Positions 11,243 to 36,333 of a DNA stretch of 36,333 bases are shown piece after piece. Numbering within the stretch: position 1 is the stretch's first letter; each line of letters starts with the position of its first letter. The notes beneath the pieces are model-generated. The model saw nothing but the letters and a program-made list of their open reading frames with translations, ran no database searches and had not been told where the DNA came from. This stretch comes from a virus (Duplodnaviria; Caudoviricetes), in the IMG/VR virus record IMGVR_UViG_3300030095_005826, positions 1 to 36,333 of that record; one strand, 5' to 3'. The translations under genes were made by a program, and so were the position numbers.

Positions 11243-12448
11243 TTATTTTTTTAATTTAATTCGTAGCTTACTGCTATCATCGCCTGATATTGCTCGTACT
11301 TTTATTCCTCCTGATTCAACAACTCCTGAACTAGTTTGTCGCGGATCCATATTTATATTTTTAGATTCTGATGCGATTTCCTTAACAGCTTCTGTTTTAC
11401 CAAGTTGATAAAAATGATTTGCAATATTATCAGCGTTTTTAGCGGCAAATAATGCTTTATGATAACCATATCCATCTTTTAGAGTTCTGTTTTCGTCTAG
11501 GTAACTACCAATAACGTTCATAACATCCATTTGGGTATTTTTAACATTGTCAACATCTTTCAATTTATATTTAAATGTTTTATTATCAATGTTGAAATCA
11601 AAACCTTTGAATTCTTGATTGAAAACTTCATTTGTTTTTAGTTTAAATTGATTTGTCGCTTTTTCTTGTTGGTGAGCAATTTCTTGTTGCTCAGTATTGT
11701 ATCTATTAAAAAAGTTTACAGCTTTTTGTTGATCAGTACTTAAACTGCCTGTGTTTTTAACTTCTTTATAGTATTGACTTTTTTGTCCTTCTAAATATTG
11801 TTTTGCTTTAGCTATCTCTTCCTTATAAGCTAATTCTTTTCTTTTAATATCTATTGGGTCATCTATTTCTTTGTCAAATGAATAATTATCGTCTATTAAA
11901 AAATTAACTTCATCTGATGTTAAGTGAGGTTTTGTAGTAGCATAATATTCTTTTATTAAATCTTTATTATCTAACCCCTCATAATTTTTATTTAGCCTTA
12001 TATAATCTTCCATAGAACCTCCTGTTTCATTCATAAAATTAACAAGTTCTAAAACTCCTTCAGGTACATTTACTTCAGGTTGTTCTACAGTATTTGCTTC
12101 TTGAACAATTGGTTCTTCTTTAATCGGCTCTTTTTTTGTTTGTTCCGATTCTTCAACCTGTTCAATTATCGCTTCTTCTTTTTCTTGACTTTCTGCGGCA
12201 GGCTCTTCAGGCTGCGTTTCGTTTTTTTCTTGAACTTCTTCGCTAGCGCCGGATTCGTCGCGTACAAGAACCTCATCTGTGCTTTGCTCTTGAATGGCAT
12301 CTTTTTCTTCTTTAGGTTTTCTTAAATCTACTTTAGTAACCGTTTCGGTTCCAGTATCAAGTCCCATTTTTTTAAGGACTTTGGTTTCTTTTTCAGCTGT
12401 AGACGGATTTTCGTCTTCTACAACCTTTGCTTTTATTTCTTCTGACAT
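11243..12448 (-). CDS. Capsid scaffolding protein
   Basis: 401 aa, acidic low-complexity N-terminus, helical body, directly upstream of the major capsid gene. Confidence 0.7.
   Translation of the reverse strand: MSEEIKAKVVEDENPSTAEKETKVLKKMGLDTGTETVTKVDLRKPKEEKDAIQEQSTDEVLVRDESGASEEVQEKNETQPEEPAAESQEKEEAIIEQVEESEQTKKEPIKEEPIVQEANTVEQPEVNVPEGVLELVNFMNETGGSMEDYIRLNKNYEGLDNKDLIKEYYATTKPHLTSDEVNFLIDDNYSFDKEIDDPIDIKRKELAYKEEIAKAKQYLEGQKSQYYKEVKNTGSLSTDQQKAVNFFNRYNTEQQEIAHQQEKATNQFKLKTNEVFNQEFKGFDFNIDNKTFKYKLKDVDNVKNTQMDVMNVIGSYLDENRTLKDGYGYHKALFAAKNADNIANHFYQLGKTEAVKEIASESKNINMDPRQTSSGVVESGGIKVRAISGDDSSKLRIKLKK
12166..12300 (-). CDS. Overprinted (+1 frame) small basic protein inside scaffold gene, 44 aa
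   Basis: ATG at 12300 to TAA at 12166: MPFKSKAQMRFLYATNPALAKKFKKKTKRSLKSLPQKVKKKKKR; coincides with a local GC jump (32/60 at 12241-12300 vs 12/60 at 11941-12000). Confidence 0.75.
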   Translation of the reverse strand: MPFKSKAQMRFLYATNPALAKKFKKKTKRSLKSLPQKVKKKKKR

Positions 12449-12499
12449 AATATAATATAATTGTTTTTATTCTTTTTATAAAGGTAAGAATAATTAACC

Positions 12500-12817
12500 T
12501 TATGCTCCTTGATATGCAACTATAGTTCCAGAGTTTACATCAATTTCAGTCCAACGACCATAAATTGTTACTCCTTTTGGAAAGGTTACGCTATCTACTA
12601 CAAGGCCCGCTGCTCCAGCTCCTATGCCTTCAGTATTAACATAAGTTGTTGCGCTTTCTGCAACTAATCCACTTGCGCTATCAAAAACTGTATCCGATAA
12701 CATTGTTATTGCTACCCATACATTTCCAGAAGTTGGTGTAATTGCTGCTGAACTTGCTGTTGTATATGCTGAACCGTTTATACTACCGGTCCAATCGTTT
12801 TTTACTACTTTTCCCAT
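12500..12817 (-). CDS. Small beta-rich protein, possible head decoration protein
   Basis: 105-aa ORF between portal and scaffold; function inferred from position only. Confidence 0.65.
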   Translation of the reverse strand: MGKVVKNDWTGSINGSAYTTASSAAITPTSGNVWVAITMLSDTVFDSASGLVAESATTYVNTEGIGAGAAGLVVDSVTFPKGVTIYGRWTEIDVNSGTIVAYQGA

Positions 12818-12834
12818 TTTTATTTATTTAATTA

Positions 12835-15258
12835 TTACCTTGGTTCAAATTGTTCTAAACCAAATCCTCCTAAAGTATCAAACCCACTTGATTCAAAGTT
12901 TTTTGGCGGCGTATTATTTTTTCTTTGTTCTATTAACTCAGACTGTTGTGAAGCTTGAATTTTTGTTCTTTCATCTTTTCTATCTTCACGAAACTTATCT
13001 TTATCATTAATCACTCGTAAATCCATTTCTTTAAGCTTAACGTTTAATTGAAACTCATGAAGCATAAGCTCTTTTTTAATAGCAGCTTCTCTTTCTAATT
13101 TTTGAATATCAAATTGTGTTTGAGCTTGTCCCATTTTAACTTTATTTTCAGTCATTACCTGATTCTTTTGAATATCTACGGCAGCAGCAGCCTCAGCGGC
13201 TTTTGCATTAGACTCAGATTGTAACTCTATATTTCTTCTTGAAACAGCTTGATCTCTTTCTTGTTTTTTTCTTTTTCTTAATTTTAATAACTCATTTGCA
13301 AGTTTTAAATTTTTAATATTTCTTACATCAATTGCATCTTCAAGATTAATTTGTTCTTTCTGTAGAGAAACCTGTATATTGTTTTCCAGTAATTGTTTTT
13401 CTTCTTCATCGGGAGTTAATTCTAAAAATATTCCAAAATCATGTAAGTGCAGCTCTTCTACTTCTTCTAAATTAGCAACATTAAATCTTCCTAAAGAATT
13501 TATAAAAGAGTTTTTTGTATTAGCAAATTCTAAAACATCTGAAATACGTAAACTAATAGCTTCAGCTGTTTTTAATGAAAGATATAAACCAGATTGTAAT
13601 ACATGCCTCGTTGCGGTATTAGAGTTTGCTGCAGCTAATTTTTGCAAGCCTACTAAAGCATTTTTATCAGGTAATGATCCATCTCGCGCTTCATTTAATC
13701 CCGTAACATCTCTCATGTTTTGTAAATAATAATTATAAGCTGTAATTAAAGAAGATATTTTTCCACCTCCATTTCCGCTTTGTAATTCTTGAATAGGTAC
13801 TCTTCCGTTGTTAAACTCCCCATCTTGCGTCATTGATCTTCCAATAACAGAACCTGTTTGAAAAAACATATTTAAAGCTTCTTGAGGATTATAATTAGTT
13901 CCATTACCTAAGTCAACCTCAGCTATTCCGTCTGCATCTAAAAATACTCCGTCAGGCACCATTCTTGATAACACTTGTTGTAATTTTAAATGTGTTAATT
14001 GAATCATATCTGCAAACGTTGTCATCCTGCTAACTAATGATTCTAATCTTCCTTTATACATTCTAGGAGCCACAATATTATATGACATTTGAACTTTAGT
14101 GGTGTCAGATTTAGGTCTTGTCATATTTTCTGCCATTTGCCAGCTTAAAATATTTTCACTACCTATTATTTTTGCTCCACAATATAAAACTTCAATAGCT
14201 CTATCTACTTTTTCAAATCTTGATCTTTGATCTGCAGGAGGATTAAAGCTATCATCTTTTTTAATTGCTTTTTTACCGCCTGACGTAGTTTCTTTAATTT
14301 TATATGTTTGATTTCTATAAGTTTTATATTCAAAATATAAAATATATACGTAACCATCGTCGTCCCCATCTAAAGCCCCATACGATTTATTATATAACAA
14401 AGCGCCTGAGCCTAATCCGTTATCTTCAATATTTTTAATTTCTTCATCTGTAATTTCAGGAAATTGTTTTTTAAGCTCAACTATACTTAATTTTTTTATT
14501 TCACCTACGTAATATAAATCGTCAAAGTAAGGCGATTCTGTAAAAGAATATACAATATCAGATGGGTCTACATAATTTATAGTTATACCTTCTGCTTTAT
14601 TAAATCCATTTTTTACACACCCCATCCCTATAACAGCTATGTCATAATCAAGTCTTTTCTTAATTAGTTCATATTTGTTTTTTTCCATAACATTGTTTAT
14701 AGCTTCCTCTTGCGCTATTTCAATACCTTGTTTATATTCTAATTGCATATGAACACTTAGTTCATTTTCATCATAAGGTAATTTAGTAGGGTCTGTTTTA
14801 TAAACATTTACACCTAGTCTGCTTTGGACGGCGTCAATATATTCTTTTGACTTCATGTCTCGAAGTATATTTGACATATAGCTATTTCTTTTTTCTATTG
14901 AGCTAGGGTCCTGCGAATAAGCTTTTACATCATATGTTCTTTCTGCAATACCATTAACTACTATATCTACGAACTTAGGAATAATAGGTACAGGTTTCCA
15001 ATCTAAATTTAAATAAGATAAATCTCCATTTATTGAAAGTTCATCTTTATATTTTTGTATTGATTGTTCACCTCTTGCATATAATCTTAATCTATGAAAG
15101 TTTTCACGATTAGATTGATACCTTGAAGTACCAGAATCTTTTTTAAACCATTCCGATTCAATAGCTCTTCCTATTTTCTTACCATATTCTATGCTAGCTT
15201 TTTCTGTGTCAGATACTGACATACTCGGAAATAATCCTGTTGGGTGTGACTTTGCCAT
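12835..15258 (-). CDS. Portal protein
   Basis: 807 aa; RLRLYARGEQSIQKYKDEL, LDWKPVPIIPKFVDIVVNG, RDVTGLNEARDGS motifs, C-terminal coiled coil; abuts terL. Confidence 0.85.
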   Translation of the reverse strand: MAKSHPTGLFPSMSVSDTEKASIEYGKKIGRAIESEWFKKDSGTSRYQSNRENFHRLRLYARGEQSIQKYKDELSINGDLSYLNLDWKPVPIIPKFVDIVVNGIAERTYDVKAYSQDPSSIEKRNSYMSNILRDMKSKEYIDAVQSRLGVNVYKTDPTKLPYDENELSVHMQLEYKQGIEIAQEEAINNVMEKNKYELIKKRLDYDIAVIGMGCVKNGFNKAEGITINYVDPSDIVYSFTESPYFDDLYYVGEIKKLSIVELKKQFPEITDEEIKNIEDNGLGSGALLYNKSYGALDGDDDGYVYILYFEYKTYRNQTYKIKETTSGGKKAIKKDDSFNPPADQRSRFEKVDRAIEVLYCGAKIIGSENILSWQMAENMTRPKSDTTKVQMSYNIVAPRMYKGRLESLVSRMTTFADMIQLTHLKLQQVLSRMVPDGVFLDADGIAEVDLGNGTNYNPQEALNMFFQTGSVIGRSMTQDGEFNNGRVPIQELQSGNGGGKISSLITAYNYYLQNMRDVTGLNEARDGSLPDKNALVGLQKLAAANSNTATRHVLQSGLYLSLKTAEAISLRISDVLEFANTKNSFINSLGRFNVANLEEVEELHLHDFGIFLELTPDEEEKQLLENNIQVSLQKEQINLEDAIDVRNIKNLKLANELLKLRKRKKQERDQAVSRRNIELQSESNAKAAEAAAAVDIQKNQVMTENKVKMGQAQTQFDIQKLEREAAIKKELMLHEFQLNVKLKEMDLRVINDKDKFREDRKDERTKIQASQQSELIEQRKNNTPPKNFESSGFDTLGGFGLEQFEPR

Positions 15259-17475
15259 TTACTTTAATATTTTTGATAAACTACCTTGGTTATTATATTT
15301 TTTAAATTCAAACTCTAATTTCTTTTTTGTTTTTACTACAGCGGGTGCATACATATTTTTATTACATGCCATAATTGCAAGCCCTGAACTTATTGCTGCA
15401 TCAAACTTTGTTCTTTTATTTATATCAAACAAAGCCCAATCATTTAATGTACGATCAAAATATAAATCACCATAATTGTTATCTTCTTTTAATCCTACAT
15501 GTTTGTCTATATATGATTCTATAGCTGCCGCGTGTGCTTGTCTAATATCTTCTGAGGAATTTGGTATACCTCCTACTTCTTTTTCTGTAACTGATAATTT
15601 ATTATAATTTTTATCAGGTCTATTCATTGAATATCCTCTATAGCCTCTTCTTTTTAAATAATACAAAAGTCTTGGCTTATTGTTTTCTGCTAATAACGGC
15701 ATTCCATAAAATACTAATGCCATTAATACATCTTCAAAAAACATTTCCGCTGTTGGCGGCCTTGATACATATTCAAGAAAAAAACTATTAGAAGGGGCTT
15801 CGTCTAAGCTAAACTTAGTCAATCCATGTAAAGCTCCTTTAGATCCTTGACCATCTGTCGTTCCGGATATATCGTAACTATCACATCCAAAAGCCCCTAA
15901 GTGTTCATTACCAGGATGCTTTCTTCCACTTCTATTAATTACAATGTTTTGCATATGTACAGGTGGTATCCAAGAAATATTAAATCTTCCTTTTAAGTCT
16001 GGCATAAAAATAACTTTGCTATCTTTTATTCCATTTTCCCATTGAAAGTTTCCTTTTGATACAAACCCAGATCCTTTTAAATCTCCATTGTAATCTATTT
16101 GTTCGTATATCTTTTGTAAATTAAATATACTATTTTTTGTTTCGTCTCTAAACGCATGTTCTTCAGTACGCGGGAATTGACGATAAAATTCATTTAATGC
16201 GTCTTGGTCGCCTTTAAGACCATCTGCTTCGTTTTGCCAATGTTCAATAACTCCTGTTCCAATTGTTTCTCCATAATTGTCGCGAGCGCTAGTATCTCCA
16301 GATTCAAAGACAGGCATTCCGCAATCGTCGATAAATCCTTCGTAGTTCCATTCCATAGGTATGAATAAGCTATATAATCCAGAGCTTGTTTGTCCATTCC
16401 TGTTTCGTTTAGTAACGTCTGAAGCATAATATAATTTTTTAAAGTTATCACCACCCTTATCCAGTGAATTTGATGTTGATCCCATCATACACTTTCCTAT
16501 TATCCTACTTCCTAATCTTAGGGTTGTTTTTGTTACTCGCCAGTTATTTAATATATTATCTGGTCTTTCCCATTTACCAGATTCATCATGCACTAATAGT
16601 TTTAACTTTTCACCATCATAAGAGTTATCTCCTGTATTCTTCCAATCTATTGTTGTATCGAGCCCTTCGAGCGCCTCGGGCTTAGCGGAGCCAGTTGCAC
16701 TGATGGATTTCCTTGTGAGCTTGGAGGCTGGTACCCTGAAGGCGAGCTCGGTCTTGGGACGGTCCATTCCGTCTTGTATTGGTTTGAAGAAAAAGGGGTA
16801 GTGTACTGATATGGGTACCACCTTGTCGGTAAACATCTTCTTTGCATCTGCACCACTCTTCGATAAGATTCCGAATCTAGAATCTGACGATATTGTGGCT
16901 TGGTTAACCGTCTCAGCACTTGACATGAATGAAAATCCGGAACGCCTATTTTTAAGGTAGCAAATTCCATAGCATCTTTGATCTGCCTTGCATGCCTCCC
17001 AGAATATGAAGAATAATCTGTTTGCTTCTCGAAAGTCTGGCTTCCCAACATCAATTTTGGACCACTGCAAGTACATATAATGAGTGCCAGTAATATAAGT
17101 GCTACAACCTTTGTTGCGAAACCAATAGCCTTCTTCCCTCCTGGTAAATTCTCTATCAATGTATGCATACCACTTTTCTTTTAATTCTTCTGGATAATTT
17201 CTCCAATCAAATATTGTTTTTAGTCTTCTAAGCTCTTCTGGGTAATCATGCGCAATCCATTTATCATCTATGCTATACACATCTTTTTCAACAGGTAAAG
17301 CAATTTTTAAATTTTGTATTTCATATACTTCACCTATTTTACCTGTTCTGCTAATAACAACTACATCATGTTCTTCATTATATCCATACTCCCACTTCTT
17401 GCCTTTATTCAATCTACTAATAGTAGTTTTTTTAATAGGCTCAATAATTTTGTATAATGTTTGTTGATACGCCAT
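15259..17475 (-). CDS. terL: Terminase large subunit
   Basis: 738 aa; Walker A-like KNRRSGFS, Walker B LLVHDESGK, motif MGST, nuclease motifs FGCDSYD and FDAAISSGLA. Confidence 0.9.
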   Translation of the reverse strand: MAYQQTLYKIIEPIKKTTISRLNKGKKWEYGYNEEHDVVVISRTGKIGEVYEIQNLKIALPVEKDVYSIDDKWIAHDYPEELRRLKTIFDWRNYPEELKEKWYAYIDREFTRREEGYWFRNKGCSTYITGTHYMYLQWSKIDVGKPDFREANRLFFIFWEACKADQRCYGICYLKNRRSGFSFMSSAETVNQATISSDSRFGILSKSGADAKKMFTDKVVPISVHYPFFFKPIQDGMDRPKTELAFRVPASKLTRKSISATGSAKPEALEGLDTTIDWKNTGDNSYDGEKLKLLVHDESGKWERPDNILNNWRVTKTTLRLGSRIIGKCMMGSTSNSLDKGGDNFKKLYYASDVTKRNRNGQTSSGLYSLFIPMEWNYEGFIDDCGMPVFESGDTSARDNYGETIGTGVIEHWQNEADGLKGDQDALNEFYRQFPRTEEHAFRDETKNSIFNLQKIYEQIDYNGDLKGSGFVSKGNFQWENGIKDSKVIFMPDLKGRFNISWIPPVHMQNIVINRSGRKHPGNEHLGAFGCDSYDISGTTDGQGSKGALHGLTKFSLDEAPSNSFFLEYVSRPPTAEMFFEDVLMALVFYGMPLLAENNKPRLLYYLKRRGYRGYSMNRPDKNYNKLSVTEKEVGGIPNSSEDIRQAHAAAIESYIDKHVGLKEDNNYGDLYFDRTLNDWALFDINKRTKFDAAISSGLAIMACNKNMYAPAVVKTKKKLEFEFKKYNNQGSLSKILK
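16194..16454 (-). CDS. Candidate overprinted (+1 frame) ORF inside terL, up to 86 aa
   Basis: Same alternative frame as 16647-17168; locally raised GC (26/60 at 16261-16320). Confidence 0.4.
   Translation of the reverse strand: MVITLKNYIMLQTLLNETGMDKQALDYIAYSYLWNGTTKDLSTIAECLSLNLEILALATIMEKQLEQELLNIGKTKQMVLKATKTH
16647..17168 (-). CDS. Candidate overprinted (+1 frame) lipoprotein/membrane protein inside terL, 173 aa
   Basis: 173 stop-free codons in the +1 frame; signal-like KK...KVVALILLALIICTC-SGPK; Pro/Ser-rich tail; GC 32/60 at 16681-16740 vs 13/60 at 17281-17340. Confidence 0.6.
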   Translation of the reverse strand: MHTLIENLPGGKKAIGFATKVVALILLALIICTCSGPKLMLGSQTFEKQTDYSSYSGRHARQIKDAMEFATLKIGVPDFHSCQVLRRLTKPQYRQILDSESYRRVVQMQRRCLPTRWYPYQYTTPFSSNQYKTEWTVPRPSSPSGYQPPSSQGNPSVQLAPLSPRRSKGSIQQ

Positions 17476-17747
17476 TACTTAGATTTTTTTTCTGCAAACC
17501 CTGAAAACGTATTTTCTTTTGTTTGCTTTGGTTTATTTTCAAGTAAACTTTTTTCTGCTTCTATTCTATTTAATATTTCAAAAGCATCAAATATTGCAAG
17601 TTTCTTGGTAGCAGCAGCGTTCTTTAATCTATCAGCTGAAACATCATCATCAGTTTCAACAATAGCTTCTTTTGCTACTTTGACCAATTCGTCAACAGCT
17701 TTATAGCCAGCTTGGATTATATTCTCTTTCTTCTTTTTTATATCCAT
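17475..17747 (-). CDS. Probable terminase small subunit
   Basis: 90-aa helical ORF whose stop overlaps the terL start; call based on position. Confidence 0.55.
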   Translation of the reverse strand: MDIKKKKENIIQAGYKAVDELVKVAKEAIVETDDDVSADRLKNAAATKKLAIFDAFEILNRIEAEKSLLENKPKQTKENTFSGFAEKKSK

Positions 17748-18288
17748 AACGTATAGATATTTCGTTGTTTATTACTCTATATAGTCTTTCGCCTTCTATT
17801 ACAAATTCATATTCACTATCTGGAGTAAATCCTATTTTTTCATTAACCTTAAAGTTATTCGTATTATCTACGTACTTAATAATACCTGTTAATGAGATTT
17901 CTTTATTAATTGAAAACTTATCATTGTTTAGTAAAGGTTTTACGAAACTAAATCCTTGATTCGCTTTCCATATGCCATCACGCTTGTAAAGAAATATTTG
18001 CTCAAGTTCGCAGAAGTATAAATTATTTTTAAAATAACTTTTACTATTGCGCTCAATACCTCTAACGTCATGCCAACGACGAAATATATTGTGATGCACA
18101 TAAAGAACATCACCTCTGTTAATATGTGTATCACGTGCTATAGGTGTTTCATAAACTATTGCTTCACGACTTACAAACTTGTGATCAGATATATCGGTGT
18201 TTAATATCAACTCCTTATCTCCAACTGTTTTTGTATTGTCGTATCTTTCTTTTTTAGGTTTTATTAAAAAGGAATAAATAGGTTTCAT
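17701..18288 (-). CDS. Tandem GroES-like (double co-chaperonin fold) protein
   Basis: Two GroES-like halves: MKPIYSFLIKP...INRGDVLYVHH and KANQGFSFVKP...GIIKY...VNEKIGF...EFVIEGERLYRVINNEI. Confidence 0.6.
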   Translation of the reverse strand: MKPIYSFLIKPKKERYDNTKTVGDKELILNTDISDHKFVSREAIVYETPIARDTHINRGDVLYVHHNIFRRWHDVRGIERNSKSYFKNNLYFCELEQIFLYKRDGIWKANQGFSFVKPLLNNDKFSINKEISLTGIIKYVDNTNNFKVNEKIGFTPDSEYEFVIEGERLYRVINNEISIRYGYKKEEREYNPSWL

Positions 18289-29802: not shown

Positions 29803-30261
29803 TTATTTGTTTTGTATTGTTTTGAACTTCTCAGCACCACGCGATCCAAAATATGCTACGTATACTGTAATAAGAAGTGATTTTAAAAGATCAACCCAGC
29901 CACCGTCAACTTCAAAGTCTAAACCGGTTGAGTCTATAAATATTAATAAGACCATTGAAATAGTTAAGAAAACTAATGTTAATGGCCTTGTGTTTTTTGA
30001 AAGCCAGGAATCAGATTTCATATCTGCCTGCCATCTTTTTGATACCTCTTGCATTTCAACAGTATCTTGATGCAGCAAAGCTAATGCTTTTTCCTTGTCT
30101 TCAGCTGGTAGTTCAGGATCTTTTTTAATTAAATTTTTAACTAAGCCAAGTACACCTTTATCTGGTAAAACTTCACCGAGACTACCGATTATATTAGATC
30201 CAGCACCGGCTAAAAATTTACCAACGGCTGTATCTTTTAATTTTTTTTTACTTTTTGACAT
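29803..30261 (-). CDS. Holin (GTA 3TM holin-like)
   Basis: RWQADMKSDSWLSKNTRP, two hydrophobic helices, AYFGSRGAEK motif. Confidence 0.7.
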   Translation of the reverse strand: MSKSKKKLKDTAVGKFLAGAGSNIIGSLGEVLPDKGVLGLVKNLIKKDPELPAEDKEKALALLHQDTVEMQEVSKRWQADMKSDSWLSKNTRPLTLVFLTISMVLLIFIDSTGLDFEVDGGWVDLLKSLLITVYVAYFGSRGAEKFKTIQNK

Positions 30262-30532
30262 TTGCTTTTCTTCCGGCTCTTTTGCCTTTAAGTGATTTTG
30301 GTAAATCTTCTAATTGATTACCAACTTCTTTTATAGAAGCAGCTACATCTTTTAATTCAGCTTTTAATCTGTTTAATTTGTTTACAGCATTAACTTGAAT
30401 CTCTTCAACTTTTGCTTCTACTGAATCTGCGATAAAATCACCATCAGCATCTTTAATTTTTCCTGAATGAAGCATAACTAAATACACTATAACCAGTGCT
30501 TCAATTATTGCTATTATAAATAGTATTGTCAT
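30248..30532 (-). CDS. Membrane-anchored coiled-coil protein (i-spanin-like topology)
   Basis: N-terminal hydrophobic helix followed by coiled coil; next to the holin. Confidence 0.55.
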   Translation of the reverse strand: MTILFIIAIIEALVIVYLVMLHSGKIKDADGDFIADSVEAKVEEIQVNAVNKLNRLKAELKDVAASIKEVGNQLEDLPKSLKGKRAGRKANVKK

Positions 30533-31013: not shown

Positions 31014-31304
31014 TTAATTTTTAATTATTTCATACAACTTATTGTCAATATCCTCAAGCTTCTTACCGTTTTCCTCAACTTTTTCCTGTGTATTAATTAT
31101 TGTTTCACGAATTAATTGATCTTTTAGGTCATATTCAGTTCTTGAAACTGGTGGCTCAGGCAACTCTTTAGCGAGTTGTATATCTGCTTGCAAAGAATAC
31201 CACATACCAACTACTGTTACAACCACAGCACCAATTGTTATGAGTGTTTCTACGCTAACGTTAAATTTAGATTTTTTTATTTTGTCTATATCTAATTCGC
31301 TCAT
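31014..31304 (-). CDS. Single-TM coiled-coil protein (lysis-cluster associated)
   Basis: LITIGAVVVTVVGMWYSL followed by coiled coil. Confidence 0.7.
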   Translation of the reverse strand: MSELDIDKIKKSKFNVSVETLITIGAVVVTVVGMWYSLQADIQLAKELPEPPVSRTEYDLKDQLIRETIINTQEKVEENGKKLEDIDNKLYEIIKN

Positions 31305-31307
31305 TAT

Positions 31308-31442
31308 TTATTTATTTTTTCTAAGTTTTTTAAAATCAGCACCTGTTATTTTATTAAATGGTGGTGCCATACCAGCAATCCTTTTTTGTTTAGGGGATAA
31401 CATTTGTGATCCATCTAAATCTTTATTCATTTTTTTATCCAT
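31308..31442 (-). CDS. Small basic protein, 44 aa (not in ORF track)
   Basis: MDKKMNKDLDGSQMLSPKQKRIAGMAPPFNKITGADFKKLRKNK; fills the intergenic gap. Confidence 0.75.
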   Translation of the reverse strand: MDKKMNKDLDGSQMLSPKQKRIAGMAPPFNKITGADFKKLRKNK

Positions 31443-31452
31443 AATATTTATT

Positions 31453-31734
31453 TTAACAGTTCCATTTTCTAAGTGCTAATGCTTTTCTTGTTGGTCTTCC
31501 CTTGCTATCTCGCATAGGCCCTTTAACACCTTTCATTCTAGCACAAAAAGATTTACGTCTTTTTGCAGCTTTACTACCCTTTTTTAATTTAGATGGAGGT
31601 GTTGTTACAGCAGTTTTTAGTTTACTACCTGGGTTATCTTTTCTATATTTAGCAACACCTTTTTTAGTCATGCCGCCTTTTTCACTATAGTAGCCCTTTG
31701 ATTTTTTTCTAGAGGGTGCGTTTTTTGAAGCCAT
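31453..31734 (-). CDS. Basic protein, DUF6321-like
   Basis: GGMTKKG...NPGSKLK...RRKSFCARM...ALRKWNC motif (family name from recall). Confidence 0.7.
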   Translation of the reverse strand: MASKNAPSRKKSKGYYSEKGGMTKKGVAKYRKDNPGSKLKTAVTTPPSKLKKGSKAAKRRKSFCARMKGVKGPMRDSKGRPTRKALALRKWNC

Positions 31735-32755: not shown

Positions 32756-33013
32756 TTAACCGACTAAAACAACATCTTGCTGCTTTATAACCTGATATAA
32801 GTTATCGTCGTATTCTATTCCGTGCCCAGCTCTTCTATCGTAATATACAGTGTCGTTTTCTTTTATACCCTCTGTAAAATTACCCGCAGATATTACTTTA
32901 CCTTTTAAATATCTAATGTCATCTACGTGCTGGTCCATTATAAGAAGCCCTTTTTCTTCTTTAGGTTCTTCTTTTATAGCTTCTATTATTATGTAATTAT
33001 TAATTGCCTTCAT
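32756..33013 (-). CDS. groES: Co-chaperonin GroES (cpn10)
   Basis: MKAINNYIII...KGLLI...GKVISAG...IKENDTVYY...VIKQQDVVLV; directly after groEL; likely start 33013. Confidence 0.85.
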   Translation of the reverse strand: MKAINNYIIIEAIKEEPKEEKGLLIMDQHVDDIRYLKGKVISAGNFTEGIKENDTVYYDRRAGHGIEYDDNLYQVIKQQDVVLVG

Positions 33014-34562
33014 ATGTTCTGACATTTGATATTACACAATCAGCTGATAATATTGTTGTTGCTACGCTTACCGCATTTATCAATGCTGTTTTAGTAACTA
33101 ATACTGGATCTATTATTCCGTGTTTTACCATATCTACTATTTTTCCTGTAGTTACGTCAACACCGTTTCCTTCATCTGCGTATGGCCCATAATTAATACC
33201 TGCATTTTCAAGTATTTTTTTATATGGCGCTTTTATAGCCTCGCAGAGAATTTTTTCTGCAGAGTTTTTGTTTTTAAGTTTCGCAGAAGCATTATGCAGT
33301 GCAACACCACCACCTGCTACAATACCTTCTTTGATTGCAGCTTTTACGGCATATATGGCATCTTCAACTCTATCTTTCTTTTCTTTCAATTCTATTTTAG
33401 AGTTTGCACCGACTTTTAATATTGCAACAGCTCCTGAAAGCATTGCAAGTCTTTGTTCAAGCTTTTGTTTTATAAAAGCGTTCTTTTCGCTTTTTATTTT
33501 TTTATTGACTAGATCTATTCTTTCTTTTGCTTCTTCCGGCATTTCGCCTACAGTTATTACTGTTGAAGTTACATCTGTAACTGCTTTTACAGCTTCACCT
33601 AAAACATCAGGGTTTATTAAATCTAAATCATCACCTAGCTCTTCATTAATAACTTGCGCTCCGGTTATTGTCGCTAAGTCTTGCATAGTGTCCATTTTAG
33701 TTGCTCCAAAACCAGGTGTATCAATAATATTAATTTTTATATTACCTTTTACCTTATTCATAAGCAGAGCTGACATAGGCTGTTGATCCATCTGTGCAAC
33801 TATTAATAAGCTACGTTTTTCTTTTATAACGTGTTCTAATACGTTTTGTATTTTACGTATACTTGGAATAGCTGATGCTACTATAAGGACGTACGGGTTT
33901 TCGAGTATGGCTTTATTTTTTTCACTATCTGTTACAAGATGTTGTGATTTAATTCCACAATCGAATTGTACCCCGTCAACTATTTCACTGAATGTTTCTT
34001 CTGTGTCAGATTCTTCCATCAATACGACACCGTGTTCACCTACCGATTTATATGCGTCGGCTATTGTCGATCCCAACGTTCTGTCGTTGTTGCATGATAT
34101 GGAAGCAACATCTTCCAGCATTTCGCCCTTTATATCTATACTTTTGCTATTCAAGTATTTTAATACTTTCTCCAGGCCACTCGACACCGCTGATTTTATC
34201 TCTCTTATTGAGTAATCTTCTGTTGCATCATTCATTTCCTGGAGGAGAGAATGGGCGAGGACGGTTGCTGTGGTGGTACCATCCCCTGCCTCTCTCACAG
34301 TTTTTTTGGCTGCTTCTTTTATTAGTGTTGCACCTATATTTTCCACCGGGTCCATAAGTACTACTGATTCCGCGACTGTAACACCGTCTTTTGTAATTAC
34401 GGGTTTACCCATTGCATCTTCATATATAACACACTTTCCTGAAGCGCCTAGAGTAGATTCAACTGCATGCGCTAGTTTATCTACACCTTTCATAACCTTA
34501 CCTCTGGCATTTACTCCAAAAGTAAGATCTTTTACTATCTCACTCGGGTTATTGAATTCCAT
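33000..34562 (-). CDS. groEL: Chaperonin GroEL (cpn60)
   Basis: ITKDGVTVA, AGDGTTTATVLA, KEKKDRVEDA, EGIVAGGGVAL, GIIDPVLVTKTAL motifs; no GGM tail. Confidence 0.97.
   Translation of the reverse strand: MEFNNPSEIVKDLTFGVNARGKVMKGVDKLAHAVESTLGASGKCVIYEDAMGKPVITKDGVTVAESVVLMDPVENIGATLIKEAAKKTVREAGDGTTTATVLAHSLLQEMNDATEDYSIREIKSAVSSGLEKVLKYLNSKSIDIKGEMLEDVASISCNNDRTLGSTIADAYKSVGEHGVVLMEESDTEETFSEIVDGVQFDCGIKSQHLVTDSEKNKAILENPYVLIVASAIPSIRKIQNVLEHVIKEKRSLLIVAQMDQQPMSALLMNKVKGNIKINIIDTPGFGATKMDTMQDLATITGAQVINEELGDDLDLINPDVLGEAVKAVTDVTSTVITVGEMPEEAKERIDLVNKKIKSEKNAFIKQKLEQRLAMLSGAVAILKVGANSKIELKEKKDRVEDAIYAVKAAIKEGIVAGGGVALHNASAKLKNKNSAEKILCEAIKAPYKKILENAGINYGPYADEGNGVDVTTGKIVDMVKHGIIDPVLVTKTALINAVSVATTILSADCVISNVRTYEGN
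34239..34300 (-). other. Long RNA hairpin embedded in groEL coding sequence
   Basis: GAGAGA/UCUCUC plus GGC(A)GGGGAUGGU/ACCGUCCUCGCC around a 12-nt loop; GC 37/60 at 34241-34300. Confidence 0.55.
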
Positions 34563-34947: not shown

Positions 34948-35178
34948 TTATTCTTTTTTAGTACCACGACCACCGTTTCCCCTGTTGACTTTAACAGTTA
35001 CGAATTTCTTTCTACGGTGATCATAGTCCATGCCTTTAATTTTAATACCTTTTTTAGCTGCCTCTCTTCTCCTTCTTTGATTCTCCGCTTTCATTTTTCT
35101 TCTTCTTGGAGTTAATGCATACGCTAGGTCCCTCGCTTTCTTTGCTGCAGCGGCCTTTTTACTAAGCTTTTGTTTCAT
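34948..35178 (-). CDS. Very basic small protein with minimal HNH-like motif
   Basis: KGMDYDH...VKVNRG; first gene of the late strand. Confidence 0.55.
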   Translation of the reverse strand: MKQKLSKKAAAAKKARDLAYALTPRRRKMKAENQRRRREAAKKGIKIKGMDYDHRRKKFVTVKVNRGNGGRGTKKE

Positions 35179-35404
35179 AGATATATAATTGCGCTTTTGC
35201 GCAAAATTTTAAAAATATGACAGTAGCATCCTATTTAATATATTATATACCCTATCGTCATACTAAAAAATGTTGTAAGATATATAGAGGTTTTGGGTTA
35301 TACATATATTTTACGACACCGCCACTGTTGCGGAAACACTTTTTTTTAGCCCCACGGGGCCCTGTTTTGCTCGATTCCCTCCAGGATTTTCAGCTTTTTC
35401 CGAT

Positions 35405-35516
35405 TGCGCTCTGGTGTCTCTAGGTCTGGTCCTGGGTCGCACGGTCTGGTCGCGTGTCCGTTTTACGTGTTCGTACGTGTTGCCGTTGCTGGCTTCGTGT
35501 GCGTTCGTGTGTCCGT
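35405..35516. repeat. A-depleted, helically phased repeat tract in the strand-switch region
   Basis: CGTGT at 35453, 35466, 35476, 35496, 35506; GGTCTGGTC at 35423 and 35443. Confidence 0.7.
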
Positions 35517-35541
35517 ATCCGGAAGCGTTCCCGGCGTGATC

Positions 35542-35562
35542 ACGTTAACACCCAGATAATAT
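35542..35562 (+). promoter_or_regulatory. Early promoter-like motif copy 1 (ACG-N9-AGATAATAT)
   Basis: Same spacing as the copies at 35713 and 36246; precedes the ORF at 35590. Confidence 0.55.
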
Positions 35563-35589
35563 TACCGTATAACACTAAACACTAACACT

Positions 35590-35664
35590 ATGGAAGAGCA
35601 CGATATAGATGCGCTGATCGACTCGGTTTACGGGAACGATCACCTTTACGGGTCGGATGAGTAA
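35590..35664 (+). CDS. Small acidic peptide, 24 aa (not in ORF track)
   Basis: MEEHDIDALIDSVYGNDHLYGSDE; preceded by the motif and an A-rich leader, followed by a UUCG hairpin. Confidence 0.55.
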   Translation: MEEHDIDALIDSVYGNDHLYGSDE

Positions 35665-35668
35665 GTCC

Positions 35669-35690
35669 GGCTCGGGGCTTCGGCCCAGTC
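35669..35690 (+). other. cUUCGg tetraloop hairpin
   Basis: GGCT-CG-GGGC-TTCG-GCCC-AGTC; no U-tract. Confidence 0.6.
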
Positions 35691-35691
35691 C

Positions 35692-35733
35692 TAAATGCTA
35701 TACGTCATTAATACGACTTCATTTAGATAATAT
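35692..35733 (+). promoter_or_regulatory. Early promoter-like motif copy 2
   Basis: TAAATGCTATACGTC-N6-ACGA-N7-TAGATAATAT, repeated at 36225. Confidence 0.7.
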
Positions 35734-35757
35734 ATATGAACTTTAAAAATAATTATA

Positions 35758-35982
35758 ATGCAAAAAATTAAATACAATAAATCAAAAAATCAATACATAA
35801 TTTCAACTTTATCTAAAAATAAACAAATAATAAATCTTGAAATCTTAACTAAACTTTGCAACAAAACTCAAAGCTTACTTAAACTAAATAACAACTGGCA
35901 AACAACATCATTCTTGCCTAACTATGTCAAAATTAACAATGACTATTACTTACAAGAATTTGACTTTGACTATGTTGACTAA
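35758..35982 (+). CDS. Hypothetical early protein
   Basis: 74-aa ORF downstream of motif copy 2. Confidence 0.65.
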   Translation: MQKIKYNKSKNQYIISTLSKNKQIINLEILTKLCNKTQSLLKLNNNWQTTSFLPNYVKINNDYYLQEFDFDYVD

Positions 35983-36032
35983 ATCTTAACCCAGCTTAAC
36001 CTACTTTAATTAATAACTTAAAACTTAAAACA

Positions 36033-36227
36033 ATGACTAAATTAGAAAAACTTCGTAAAAAAGTAAAAACACAAAATACGTGGACTAACAAGAGGATCAC
36101 GTTCGGAACTACGGATACGATTAAATCCAGTACGAAACCGAGTTACAGCCGAAACGCGCTGTGGACGTATCACGGTAACAAGGAGTATTACTCACACTGT
36201 AAGTGGGAAGGGCTTAGAGAAGCGTAA
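36033..36227 (+). CDS. Hypothetical early protein
   Basis: 64-aa ORF with an A-rich leader. Confidence 0.65.
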   Translation: MTKLEKLRKKVKTQNTWTNKRITFGTTDTIKSSTKPSYSRNALWTYHGNKEYYSHCKWEGLREA

Positions 36228-36266
36228 ATGCTATACGTCTTCACAACGATTGAATATAGATAATAT
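36225..36266 (+). promoter_or_regulatory. Early promoter-like motif copy 3
   Basis: 15-bp identity to 35692-35706 plus identically spaced ACGA and TAGATAATAT. Confidence 0.7.
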
Positions 36267-36285
36267 AAATGTAAAAACAATAACT

Positions 36286-36333
36286 ATGAAACATATAAGT
36301 AAAAAAGAATTTAATAGATTCTATAAAATAATG
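36286..36333 (+). CDS. Hypothetical early protein (partial)
   Basis: MKHISKKEFNRFYKIM..., open to the window end, downstream of motif copy 3. Confidence 0.55.
   Translation, partial: MKHISKKEFNRFYKIM

Follow-up and report, generated by a model that had tools for sequence, protein, structure and literature searches.

Three +1-frame ORFs nested in the terminase and putative scaffold genes of a tailed phage show selection in relatives and are likely to be separate genes

Can the head and packaging genes of a phage carry further genes in their +1 frames? The question is raised by IMG/VR record IMGVR_UViG_3300030095_005826, of which we analysed positions 1 to 36,333 (the window), a fragment of 36 kb from a tailed phage that is uncultured and whose relatives have genomes of about 60 kb. 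Overprinting is known in tailed phages (main text of PMC6139136; available text of PMC4324244). The original prediction proposed four +1-frame open reading frames (ORFs) within host genes here, and all four are present on the minus strand: one of 44 residues at 12166..12300 in a putative scaffold gene; two in the gene for the terminase large subunit (terL), here called ORF-A (16647..17168) and ORF-B (16194 to 16454 in its longest form); and a fourth candidate at 17940..18134 in a GroES-like gene. Examination of homologs revealed +1 stop depletion or +1-frame conservation for the first three. From these comparisons we favour the reading that selection acts in relatives on three +1 frames, one in the scaffold gene and two in terL, and that these are likely to be separate genes which arose in two ways. 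Two origins are proposed because one ORF belongs to a free-standing family and the other two have no free-standing relatives.

We ranked the 45 stop-free +1 or +2 stretches of at least 35 codons in 31 genes by chance probability. ORF-A came first (log10 P -5.65) and ORF-B third (log10 P -3.05), whereas the fourth ORF was unremarkable (-1.55). The second-ranked stretch, in +2 at 16685-16876, was rejected: it has no ATG, sits on a peak of third-position GC content (GC3) and is closed in relatives. ORF-A encodes 173 residues over codons 103-275 of terL (15259..17475, minus strand; 738 residues; phrog_6681, E 1.2e-163), in the ATPase domain. For comparison, 80 terL loci at 70-83% identity were fetched and, with the window, reduced to 76 sequences below 92% nucleotide identity (median 71.6%); a second scan supplied 70 non-redundant genes, with identity of about 61%, as the outgroup. 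The relatives in these comparisons are not phylogenetically independent. The expected number of +1 stops came from a null built on control codons, in which the amino acid, codon positions one and two and the base that follows the codon were fixed. Across terL codons 109-243, 42 of the 75 covered sequences had no +1 stop, 3 had one and 30 had two or more; the null predicted 0.30 stop-free sequences. As a safeguard against circularity, sequences were classed on half of the sites and tested on the other half, and the held-out halves contained 2 stops against 88.4 expected and 8 against 106.4 expected. Third bases under ORF-A vary among T, C and G yet shun the stop-making base, which disfavours a fixed DNA motif. 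An ATG was found at codons 102-109 in 35 of 41 open sequences versus 6 of 30 closed ones. The difference at four-fold sites of codons 121-150 was 0.19 (34/177) between open sequences (21 pairs), against 0.50 between closed ones (15 pairs) and 0.52 within the outgroup (35 pairs). Open ORF-A was found in none of the 69 covered outgroup genes. With stop depletion and synonymous constraint beyond the codon null, both absent in the outgroup, ORF-A has the marks of an overprinted gene, and we regard its existence as highly probable. Four observations weigh against this: synonymous constraint is limited to the first ~50 codons and was not seen over codons 161-260; 30 of the 75 close relatives (about 40%) lack the ORF; its length after the Cys described below varies from 88 to 185 residues; and the start in the window is not preceded by an A at -3.

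The two ends of the ORF-A product differ. Its leader (17067..17168, minus strand) has a basic n-region, a hydrophobic h-region and, within ~35 residues of the start, a conserved Cys in the series Cys-Thr-Cys-Ser-Gly; leader hydropathy is 2.79 in open sequences versus 0.60 and 0.55 in the comparison sets. The sequence of the tail is not conserved, but its composition is biased towards P/S/T and other hydrophilic residues, and this bias explains the GC patch beneath it. Open sequences are scattered over the tree, and the closed ones make up one large clade and several single losses (6 changes). Elemo, phi13:2 and phi38:1 have no ORF-A. Absence from the 69 outgroup genes makes de novo birth likely; ORF-A probably arose on terL in an ancestor of this marine group and would then have been lost several times. 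We found 194 database proteins that match ORF-A and took them as the same nested frame; the Cys motif is kept in 100 of the 120 matches listed. Some database proteins (P0002, P0064, P0100 and P0273-P0295) switch between the host and +1 frames, probably through indel errors in assemblies, with programmed frameshifting as a less likely cause. An Atlas match (0.75) is a weak lead. We note two features of terL genes that lack ORF-A: a mild +1 stop deficit at codons 181-243 (12 versus 38.3 in closed genes; outgroup ratios 0.47-0.68) and, in the closed set, a small synonymous dip near codons 166-215, which may be a relic, a precursor or a context effect.

The scaffold-embedded ORF (12166..12300, minus strand) starts MPFKSKAQ and encodes 44 residues, of which 18 are K/R and none is D/E, with two predicted helices. 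Its host gene (11243..12448, minus strand; 401 residues) has an acidic, poorly conserved N-terminal linker and no PHROG or Pfam match; we call it a putative scaffold gene because of its acidic composition and its position between the portal and capsid genes. The window peptide resembles phrog_1375 (E 0.0046, with relatives down to 4.5e-7), and its profile match to the family scored 63.3 bits against 7.5 for the best of 300 shuffles. The family is large (3,625 matching clusters among 1.84 billion representatives) and often forms an N-terminal module on longer proteins. The peptide was present at the same position in 20 of 49 non-redundant scaffold homologs; a looser pattern gave 23 of 52, duplicates and one partial included. 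Substitutions and indels among the copies follow the +1 frame. Across 15 distinct copies identity was 0.56 in the +1 frame versus 0.42 in the host frame, and variation across the three +1 codon positions (0.27/0.27/0.39) was highest at the last. In the host frame, variation at third positions is 0.27 within the ORF versus 0.51 in a control region. The scaffold ORF is thus a nested frame under purifying selection of its own, and that it exists as a gene we consider close to certain. For DUF3008 there was an Atlas lead (0.86, the family being on 37% of members) and no Pfam match to the peptide; a fold search returned only uncharacterised phage proteins and nothing in PDB (best Z 2.4). The capsid staple gp4 of phage Patience was considered as a counterpart and dropped, there being no PDB match and the Patience relative being gp10, not gp4. 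In 14 of the 49 non-redundant homologs (loci L003, L006, L009, L018, L019, L032, L048, L062-L064, L068, L075, L076 and L080) this linker also hosts a second, different basic +1 peptide, with the motif ..NKKKYNRK.. at its end, which is absent from the window. It occurs mostly in the clade that has neither ORF-A nor the first peptide; two genomes have both peptides. A comparison of ORF-A with the scaffold ORF over just 4 and 8 independent pairs, too few for the purpose, did not establish co-evolution.

How did a member of a free-standing family come to lie inside another gene? A degenerate DNA scan recovered 77 distinct peptides, 54 free-standing and 23 embedded (one embedded call is doubtful). 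In a second DNA scan, 91 of 98 copies were embedded in +1, none in +2, and 7 were free or truncated; 71 of the embedded copies were in scaffold genes and 20 in other or unassignable hosts (14 of these on short loci). The giant structural genes of two further phages, Elemo gp18 and a 3,859-codon gene of a Manatee Spring phage, contain the basic gene in +1 as unannotated copies: a 42-residue copy at L286:6001-6129 (NC_055854, 52512 onward) and a 43-residue copy at L287:5001-5132 (MW202828). In all, 68 Elemo records match the basic gene at the same level. FlowerPower, Barnyard, Send513 and 201phi2-1 carry the family as a separate annotated gene, and no basic-gene match was found near terL at the outgroup terL loci. 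In the window, the host frame shows 16 acidic residues opposite the 18 basic ones of the peptide; a lysine-rich frame read one base back gives a glutamate-rich linker, so a host gene of this kind would tolerate the nested gene. Capture should need no rare event, since the -1 (back-shifted) frame is already open in 7 of the 53 free copies. Where the gene is present, the scaffold N-terminal region gains a median of ~11 residues. A complete insertion would have added more, so an extended host gene may instead have engulfed it. The 44-residue gene would accordingly be a pre-existing free-standing gene that was likely taken into its host gene. As a separate observation, phage C75C1 (OQ984151, 34579; L083:1501 onward) has an unannotated free-standing family member of 34 residues between two annotated genes.

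The evidence for ORF-B (16194..16427, minus strand; 77 residues here, family mode 54-55 residues) is of the same kind, with few informative sites for telling a gene from a nucleotide signal. Its start is more likely the ATG at 16427, which gives the 77 residues, than the GTG at 16454. The constrained core spans 16293-16427. Over terL codons 362-394 the core was open in 73 of 76 sequences versus 30.4 expected, compared with 40 of 70 versus 35.6 in the outgroup; in 70 sequences, versus 23.9 expected, the open core also had an ATG upstream. Four-fold difference in two ingroup sets was 0.32 and 0.30, against 0.52 and 0.45 in controls and 0.52 in the outgroup. Stop depletion and synonymous constraint are thus both present, and we think ORF-B is probably a real gene. 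Several points count against it. The stop signal comes mostly from codon 382 (2 stops versus 42 expected) and codon 354 (9 versus 31), and codons 361-380 are incapable of any +1 stop; between the two subgroups the peptides show non-conservative differences; and the ATG is not clearly enriched. The predicted structure is a helical hairpin of low confidence (pTM 0.36).

A DNA or RNA signal in terL codons 350-394, such as a late promoter, a packaging site or a protein-binding site, could fix third positions there without any gene. The scarcity of informative stop sites is compatible with such a signal, as is the fixation of codons 377, 380 and 382 in both subgroups while the +1 peptides differ; ORF-B also has no free-standing homolog and no credible Pfam family, its 23 matches being terL frameshift chimeras or partial matches. 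Yet the constraint covers 45 codons and is confined to the ingroup, +1 is the sole open frame, the stretch is without the TANNTTTG motif, and at Arg357 first positions vary while third positions stay fixed. Nor was a folding signal found in RNA under ORF-B or the ORF-A leader (24, 20 and 20 sequences). On balance a signal in place of ORF-B seems unlikely to us, and we return to the reading of ORF-B as a gene. A more sweeping objection would put all three frames down to shared ancestry, biased codon use or GC-rich tracts left by recombination. It draws on the non-independence of the relatives and on the mild +1 stop deficit that closed and outgroup genes also show over codons 193-260. Against it, the control genes fit the null, the split-half test holds, synonymous sites are near saturation and the scaffold peptide has thousands of relatives; in addition, xTA codons remain frequent ahead of pyrimidines (263 of 431) and drop to 6 of 451 ahead of purines, a comparison that is partly circular. 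Recombination fares no better for the GC patches: four-fold divergence in the ORF-A tail (0.53) is as high as at control sites (0.52), and third positions also vary among the non-stop bases, which argues against recent tracts. On the other side, the NN/NS and SN/SS ratios were uninformative, with too few sites, and NN/NS did not separate the ORFs from controls. We consider the by-product explanation largely refuted for the scaffold ORF and ORF-A, very improbable as an account of everything, and right for the fourth ORF.

Nesting does not extend to the module as a whole. The fourth candidate (17940..18134, minus strand), inside the GroES-like gene (17701..18288, minus strand; phrog_13932), had 301 +1 stops versus 296 expected over the same stretch in 57 non-redundant GroES-like homologs. 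A phrog_34309 match to it has E 0.008. We reject it as a chance ORF and give it almost no prospect of being a real gene; of the four ORFs, it alone fits what the original prediction had named as its refutation. Under a simpler synonymous-codon null, +1 stops were near expectation in the portal (56 homologs), capsid (33), pre-terL (61) and GroES-like (57) genes, which gives no support to the proposal that overprinting is used systematically. The accompanying idea that it serves small basic and envelope proteins survives in that one product is small and basic and one has an export-type leader. Elevated GC was said to underlie every ORF. It does so for the scaffold ORF (GC3 0.33 versus 0.15 in the rest of its host gene) and ORF-A (0.48 versus 0.20 in the rest of terL), weakly for ORF-B (0.28), and at most weakly for the fourth (GC3 0.26 versus 0.18 in the rest of the gene; GC 0.34). 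Between ORF-A and ORF-B, the terL stretch LKLLVHDE (16582..16605, minus strand; GC3 0.23), which we take to be the Walker B motif, reads TTA AAA CTA TTA GTG, so that TTA codons shut the +1 frame as predicted. Its +1 stops in relatives (475 versus 557.5 expected) are near the expected rate. Recoded stops or readthrough linking ORF-A and ORF-B were ruled out, as several different stops intervene. The nested frames, supported to different degrees, are thus three in number, confined to terL and one linker, patchy in distribution and of two origins.

What might the products do? The ORF-A product would be exported by its basic-hydrophobic-Cys leader and membrane-anchored, with a floppy tail, and we tentatively suggest an o-spanin-like helper of outer-membrane lysis that acts with the transmembrane (TM) protein beside the holin. 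Embedded o-spanins, lambda Rz1 in Rz among them, resemble ORF-A in their nested same-strand +1 position, hydrophobic leader ending in Cys and Pro-rich unstructured tail; they are often missed by gene callers, and deviant lipoboxes are known (main text of PMC6139136). ORF-A differs from Rz1 in lying in terL and not in an i-spanin gene, in lacking a canonical lipobox and in having a mature part of 88-185 residues versus 40 (same source). Weighing against a lysis role, the canonical lipobox [LVI][ASTVI][GAS]C was found at either Cys in 0 of 42 ORF-A sequences, and the i-spanin-like candidates are about 13 kb from the host gene. A C-terminal TM segment, as in a u-spanin, was also lacking (0 of 42 reach a mean hydropathy of 1.8 over 17 residues). 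With all three ORFs real, ORF-A could instead be a membrane-anchored factor for superinfection exclusion or receptor masking, or an inner-membrane assembly anchor. The non-canonical lipobox, the unconstrained tail, the 12.6 kb to the holin and the pattern of losses (one large clade and several lone lineages; 6 tree changes) would all suit such a role, whereas ORF-A has the only lipoprotein-like leader that a relaxed rule picks out in a six-frame reading of the window (the window being part of the genome), a TM-plus-helical, i-spanin-like protein sits just upstream of the holin, and the late-operon position fits lysis timing. We rate these non-lysis roles as rather unlikely. The i-spanin-like candidates (30248-30532 and 31014-31304, minus strand) are small proteins near the holin, with an N-terminal TM segment, a polar helix-like tail and no Cys.

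For the 44-residue product, a role as a nucleic-acid-binding head accessory protein appears about evenly balanced. Gene position, matches to virion PHROGs and one spectrum are suggestive only: free relatives lie directly after the portal gene in three mycobacteriophages (Send513, Barnyard and Patience), the genes that host embedded copies are head or giant virion genes, and the module of 201phi2-1 resembles the N-terminal ends of two PHROGs labelled 'virion structural protein'. The remotely related gp10 of Patience (14.9 bits versus 8.8 for the best shuffle) yielded 1 particle spectrum, against 4-5 spectra at 30 min (PMC4324244 Table S1); that this remote relative supplies the sole virion evidence for the basic family counts against a head role. 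The greater number of gp10 spectra at 30 min than in particles would also suit a protein that acts on host ribosomes or RNA, or that serves mainly as a capsid-targeting tag, as would its very basic and tiny nature, the module's place at the head of many longer proteins whose other domains are unrelated (NUDIX, cupin and ParB-like among them) and the occurrence of some free copies outside head modules. Set against the positions after the portal gene and within head genes, we find these alternatives improbable and keep the head accessory protein as the working assignment. ORF-B would be a second de novo gene for a ~55-residue cytoplasmic peptide, and a small regulator of packaging is a guess that we think is probably wrong.

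We infer the translation, origins and functions of all three ORFs from the selection and distribution described above. Translation would probably occur by internal initiation on late mRNA, and co-expression with the packaging machinery is suggested by position. An SD-like (Shine-Dalgarno-like) motif precedes only 1 of the 31 main window genes, which makes SD-less initiation, whose determinants are described in the available text of PMC6847099, plausible. A putative SD-less, A-rich initiation region precedes the scaffold ORF (12301..12315, minus strand; A at -3, -6, -12 and -13), its A-richness being partly forced by the E/K-rich host frame. Among RNA runs, one contig spans 11681-12566 with no differences; such contigs carry neither strand nor frame. 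A sigma-70 promoter scan gave matches at chance level.

Nested genes in tailed phages have so far been known mostly from spanins, whereas in the window terL, which encodes a core packaging enzyme, contains one that is well supported and a second that is probable. The word 'terminase' is absent from the main text of PMC6139136. The embedded ORFs of Patience, like ours, are same-strand and inside core genes (one a head gene), and they indicate that such frames are translatable in tailed phages; they are reported to be generally not conserved (available text of PMC4324244), whereas the window ORFs, predicted from sequence, show selection in dozens of genomes. Members of the phrog_1375 family (Barnyard gp9, Send513 gp7 and, remotely, Patience gp10) share the F[KR]SK.Q.R core, the basic tail and the head-module position, but are free-standing with an N-terminal extension, unlike the out-of-frame gene of the window. 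No description of these genes was found in the literature covered, which left out subscription journals and bioRxiv supplements; Elemo is not mentioned in the available text of PMC7077304, nor are the matches found here listed in that of PMC11965321 and its supplement. The view that standard callers miss such genes holds for the unannotated Elemo copies of the basic gene and only in part for ORF-A, which is sometimes called, as its 194 database matches attest. Genomes that keep ORF-A, those that lost it and the outgroup without it form a natural series for gene birth and loss, and the scaffold ORF suggests that overlap can also come about in another way, by the capture of an existing gene rather than by de novo birth. 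Elemo phages on Flavobacterium BAL314, with their unannotated copy, offer a cultured system for that case. Because the terL and scaffold genes of this group carry a second layer of constraint, ratios of non-synonymous to synonymous substitution (dN/dS) would be biased. A broader scheme, which we consider unlikely as a whole, is that tiny lysine-rich genes move by nesting in glutamate-rich linkers of head and giant-virion genes, at more than one host gene, alongside two new genes overprinted on the terminase ATPase, of which one is a separated o-spanin of de novo origin.

The minus-strand genes of the window encode GroEL/GroES, the holin, tail proteins, the GroES-like protein, TerL, the portal, the putative scaffold and the capsid protein. 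By terL identity the nearest cultured relatives are Elemovirus (45%) and Pachyviridae and Pervagoviridae (32-38%), phages of Flavobacteriia that share the order GroES-like, terL, portal, scaffold or structural, capsid; Elemo differs in having the basic gene in a giant virion gene and not in the scaffold. The near absence of SD-like motifs fits a Bacteroidota-type host. The sequencing runs that hold the window best are labelled marine or aquatic, and the group is abundant, with an estimated 14,000 or so stored stretches. Besides GroEL and GroES (32756-34562, minus strand), the window thus encodes a second GroES-like protein before the terminase (17701-18288, minus strand). A cluster of free-standing small basic genes lies at 31308-31734 and 34948-35178 (minus strand); one encodes a DUF6321 protein, and in database protein P0102 the DUF6321 domain is fused to the basic module. 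The coding strand switches within 35217-36333, and a GC-richer, gene-poor stretch near 35200-35600 is possibly a control region.

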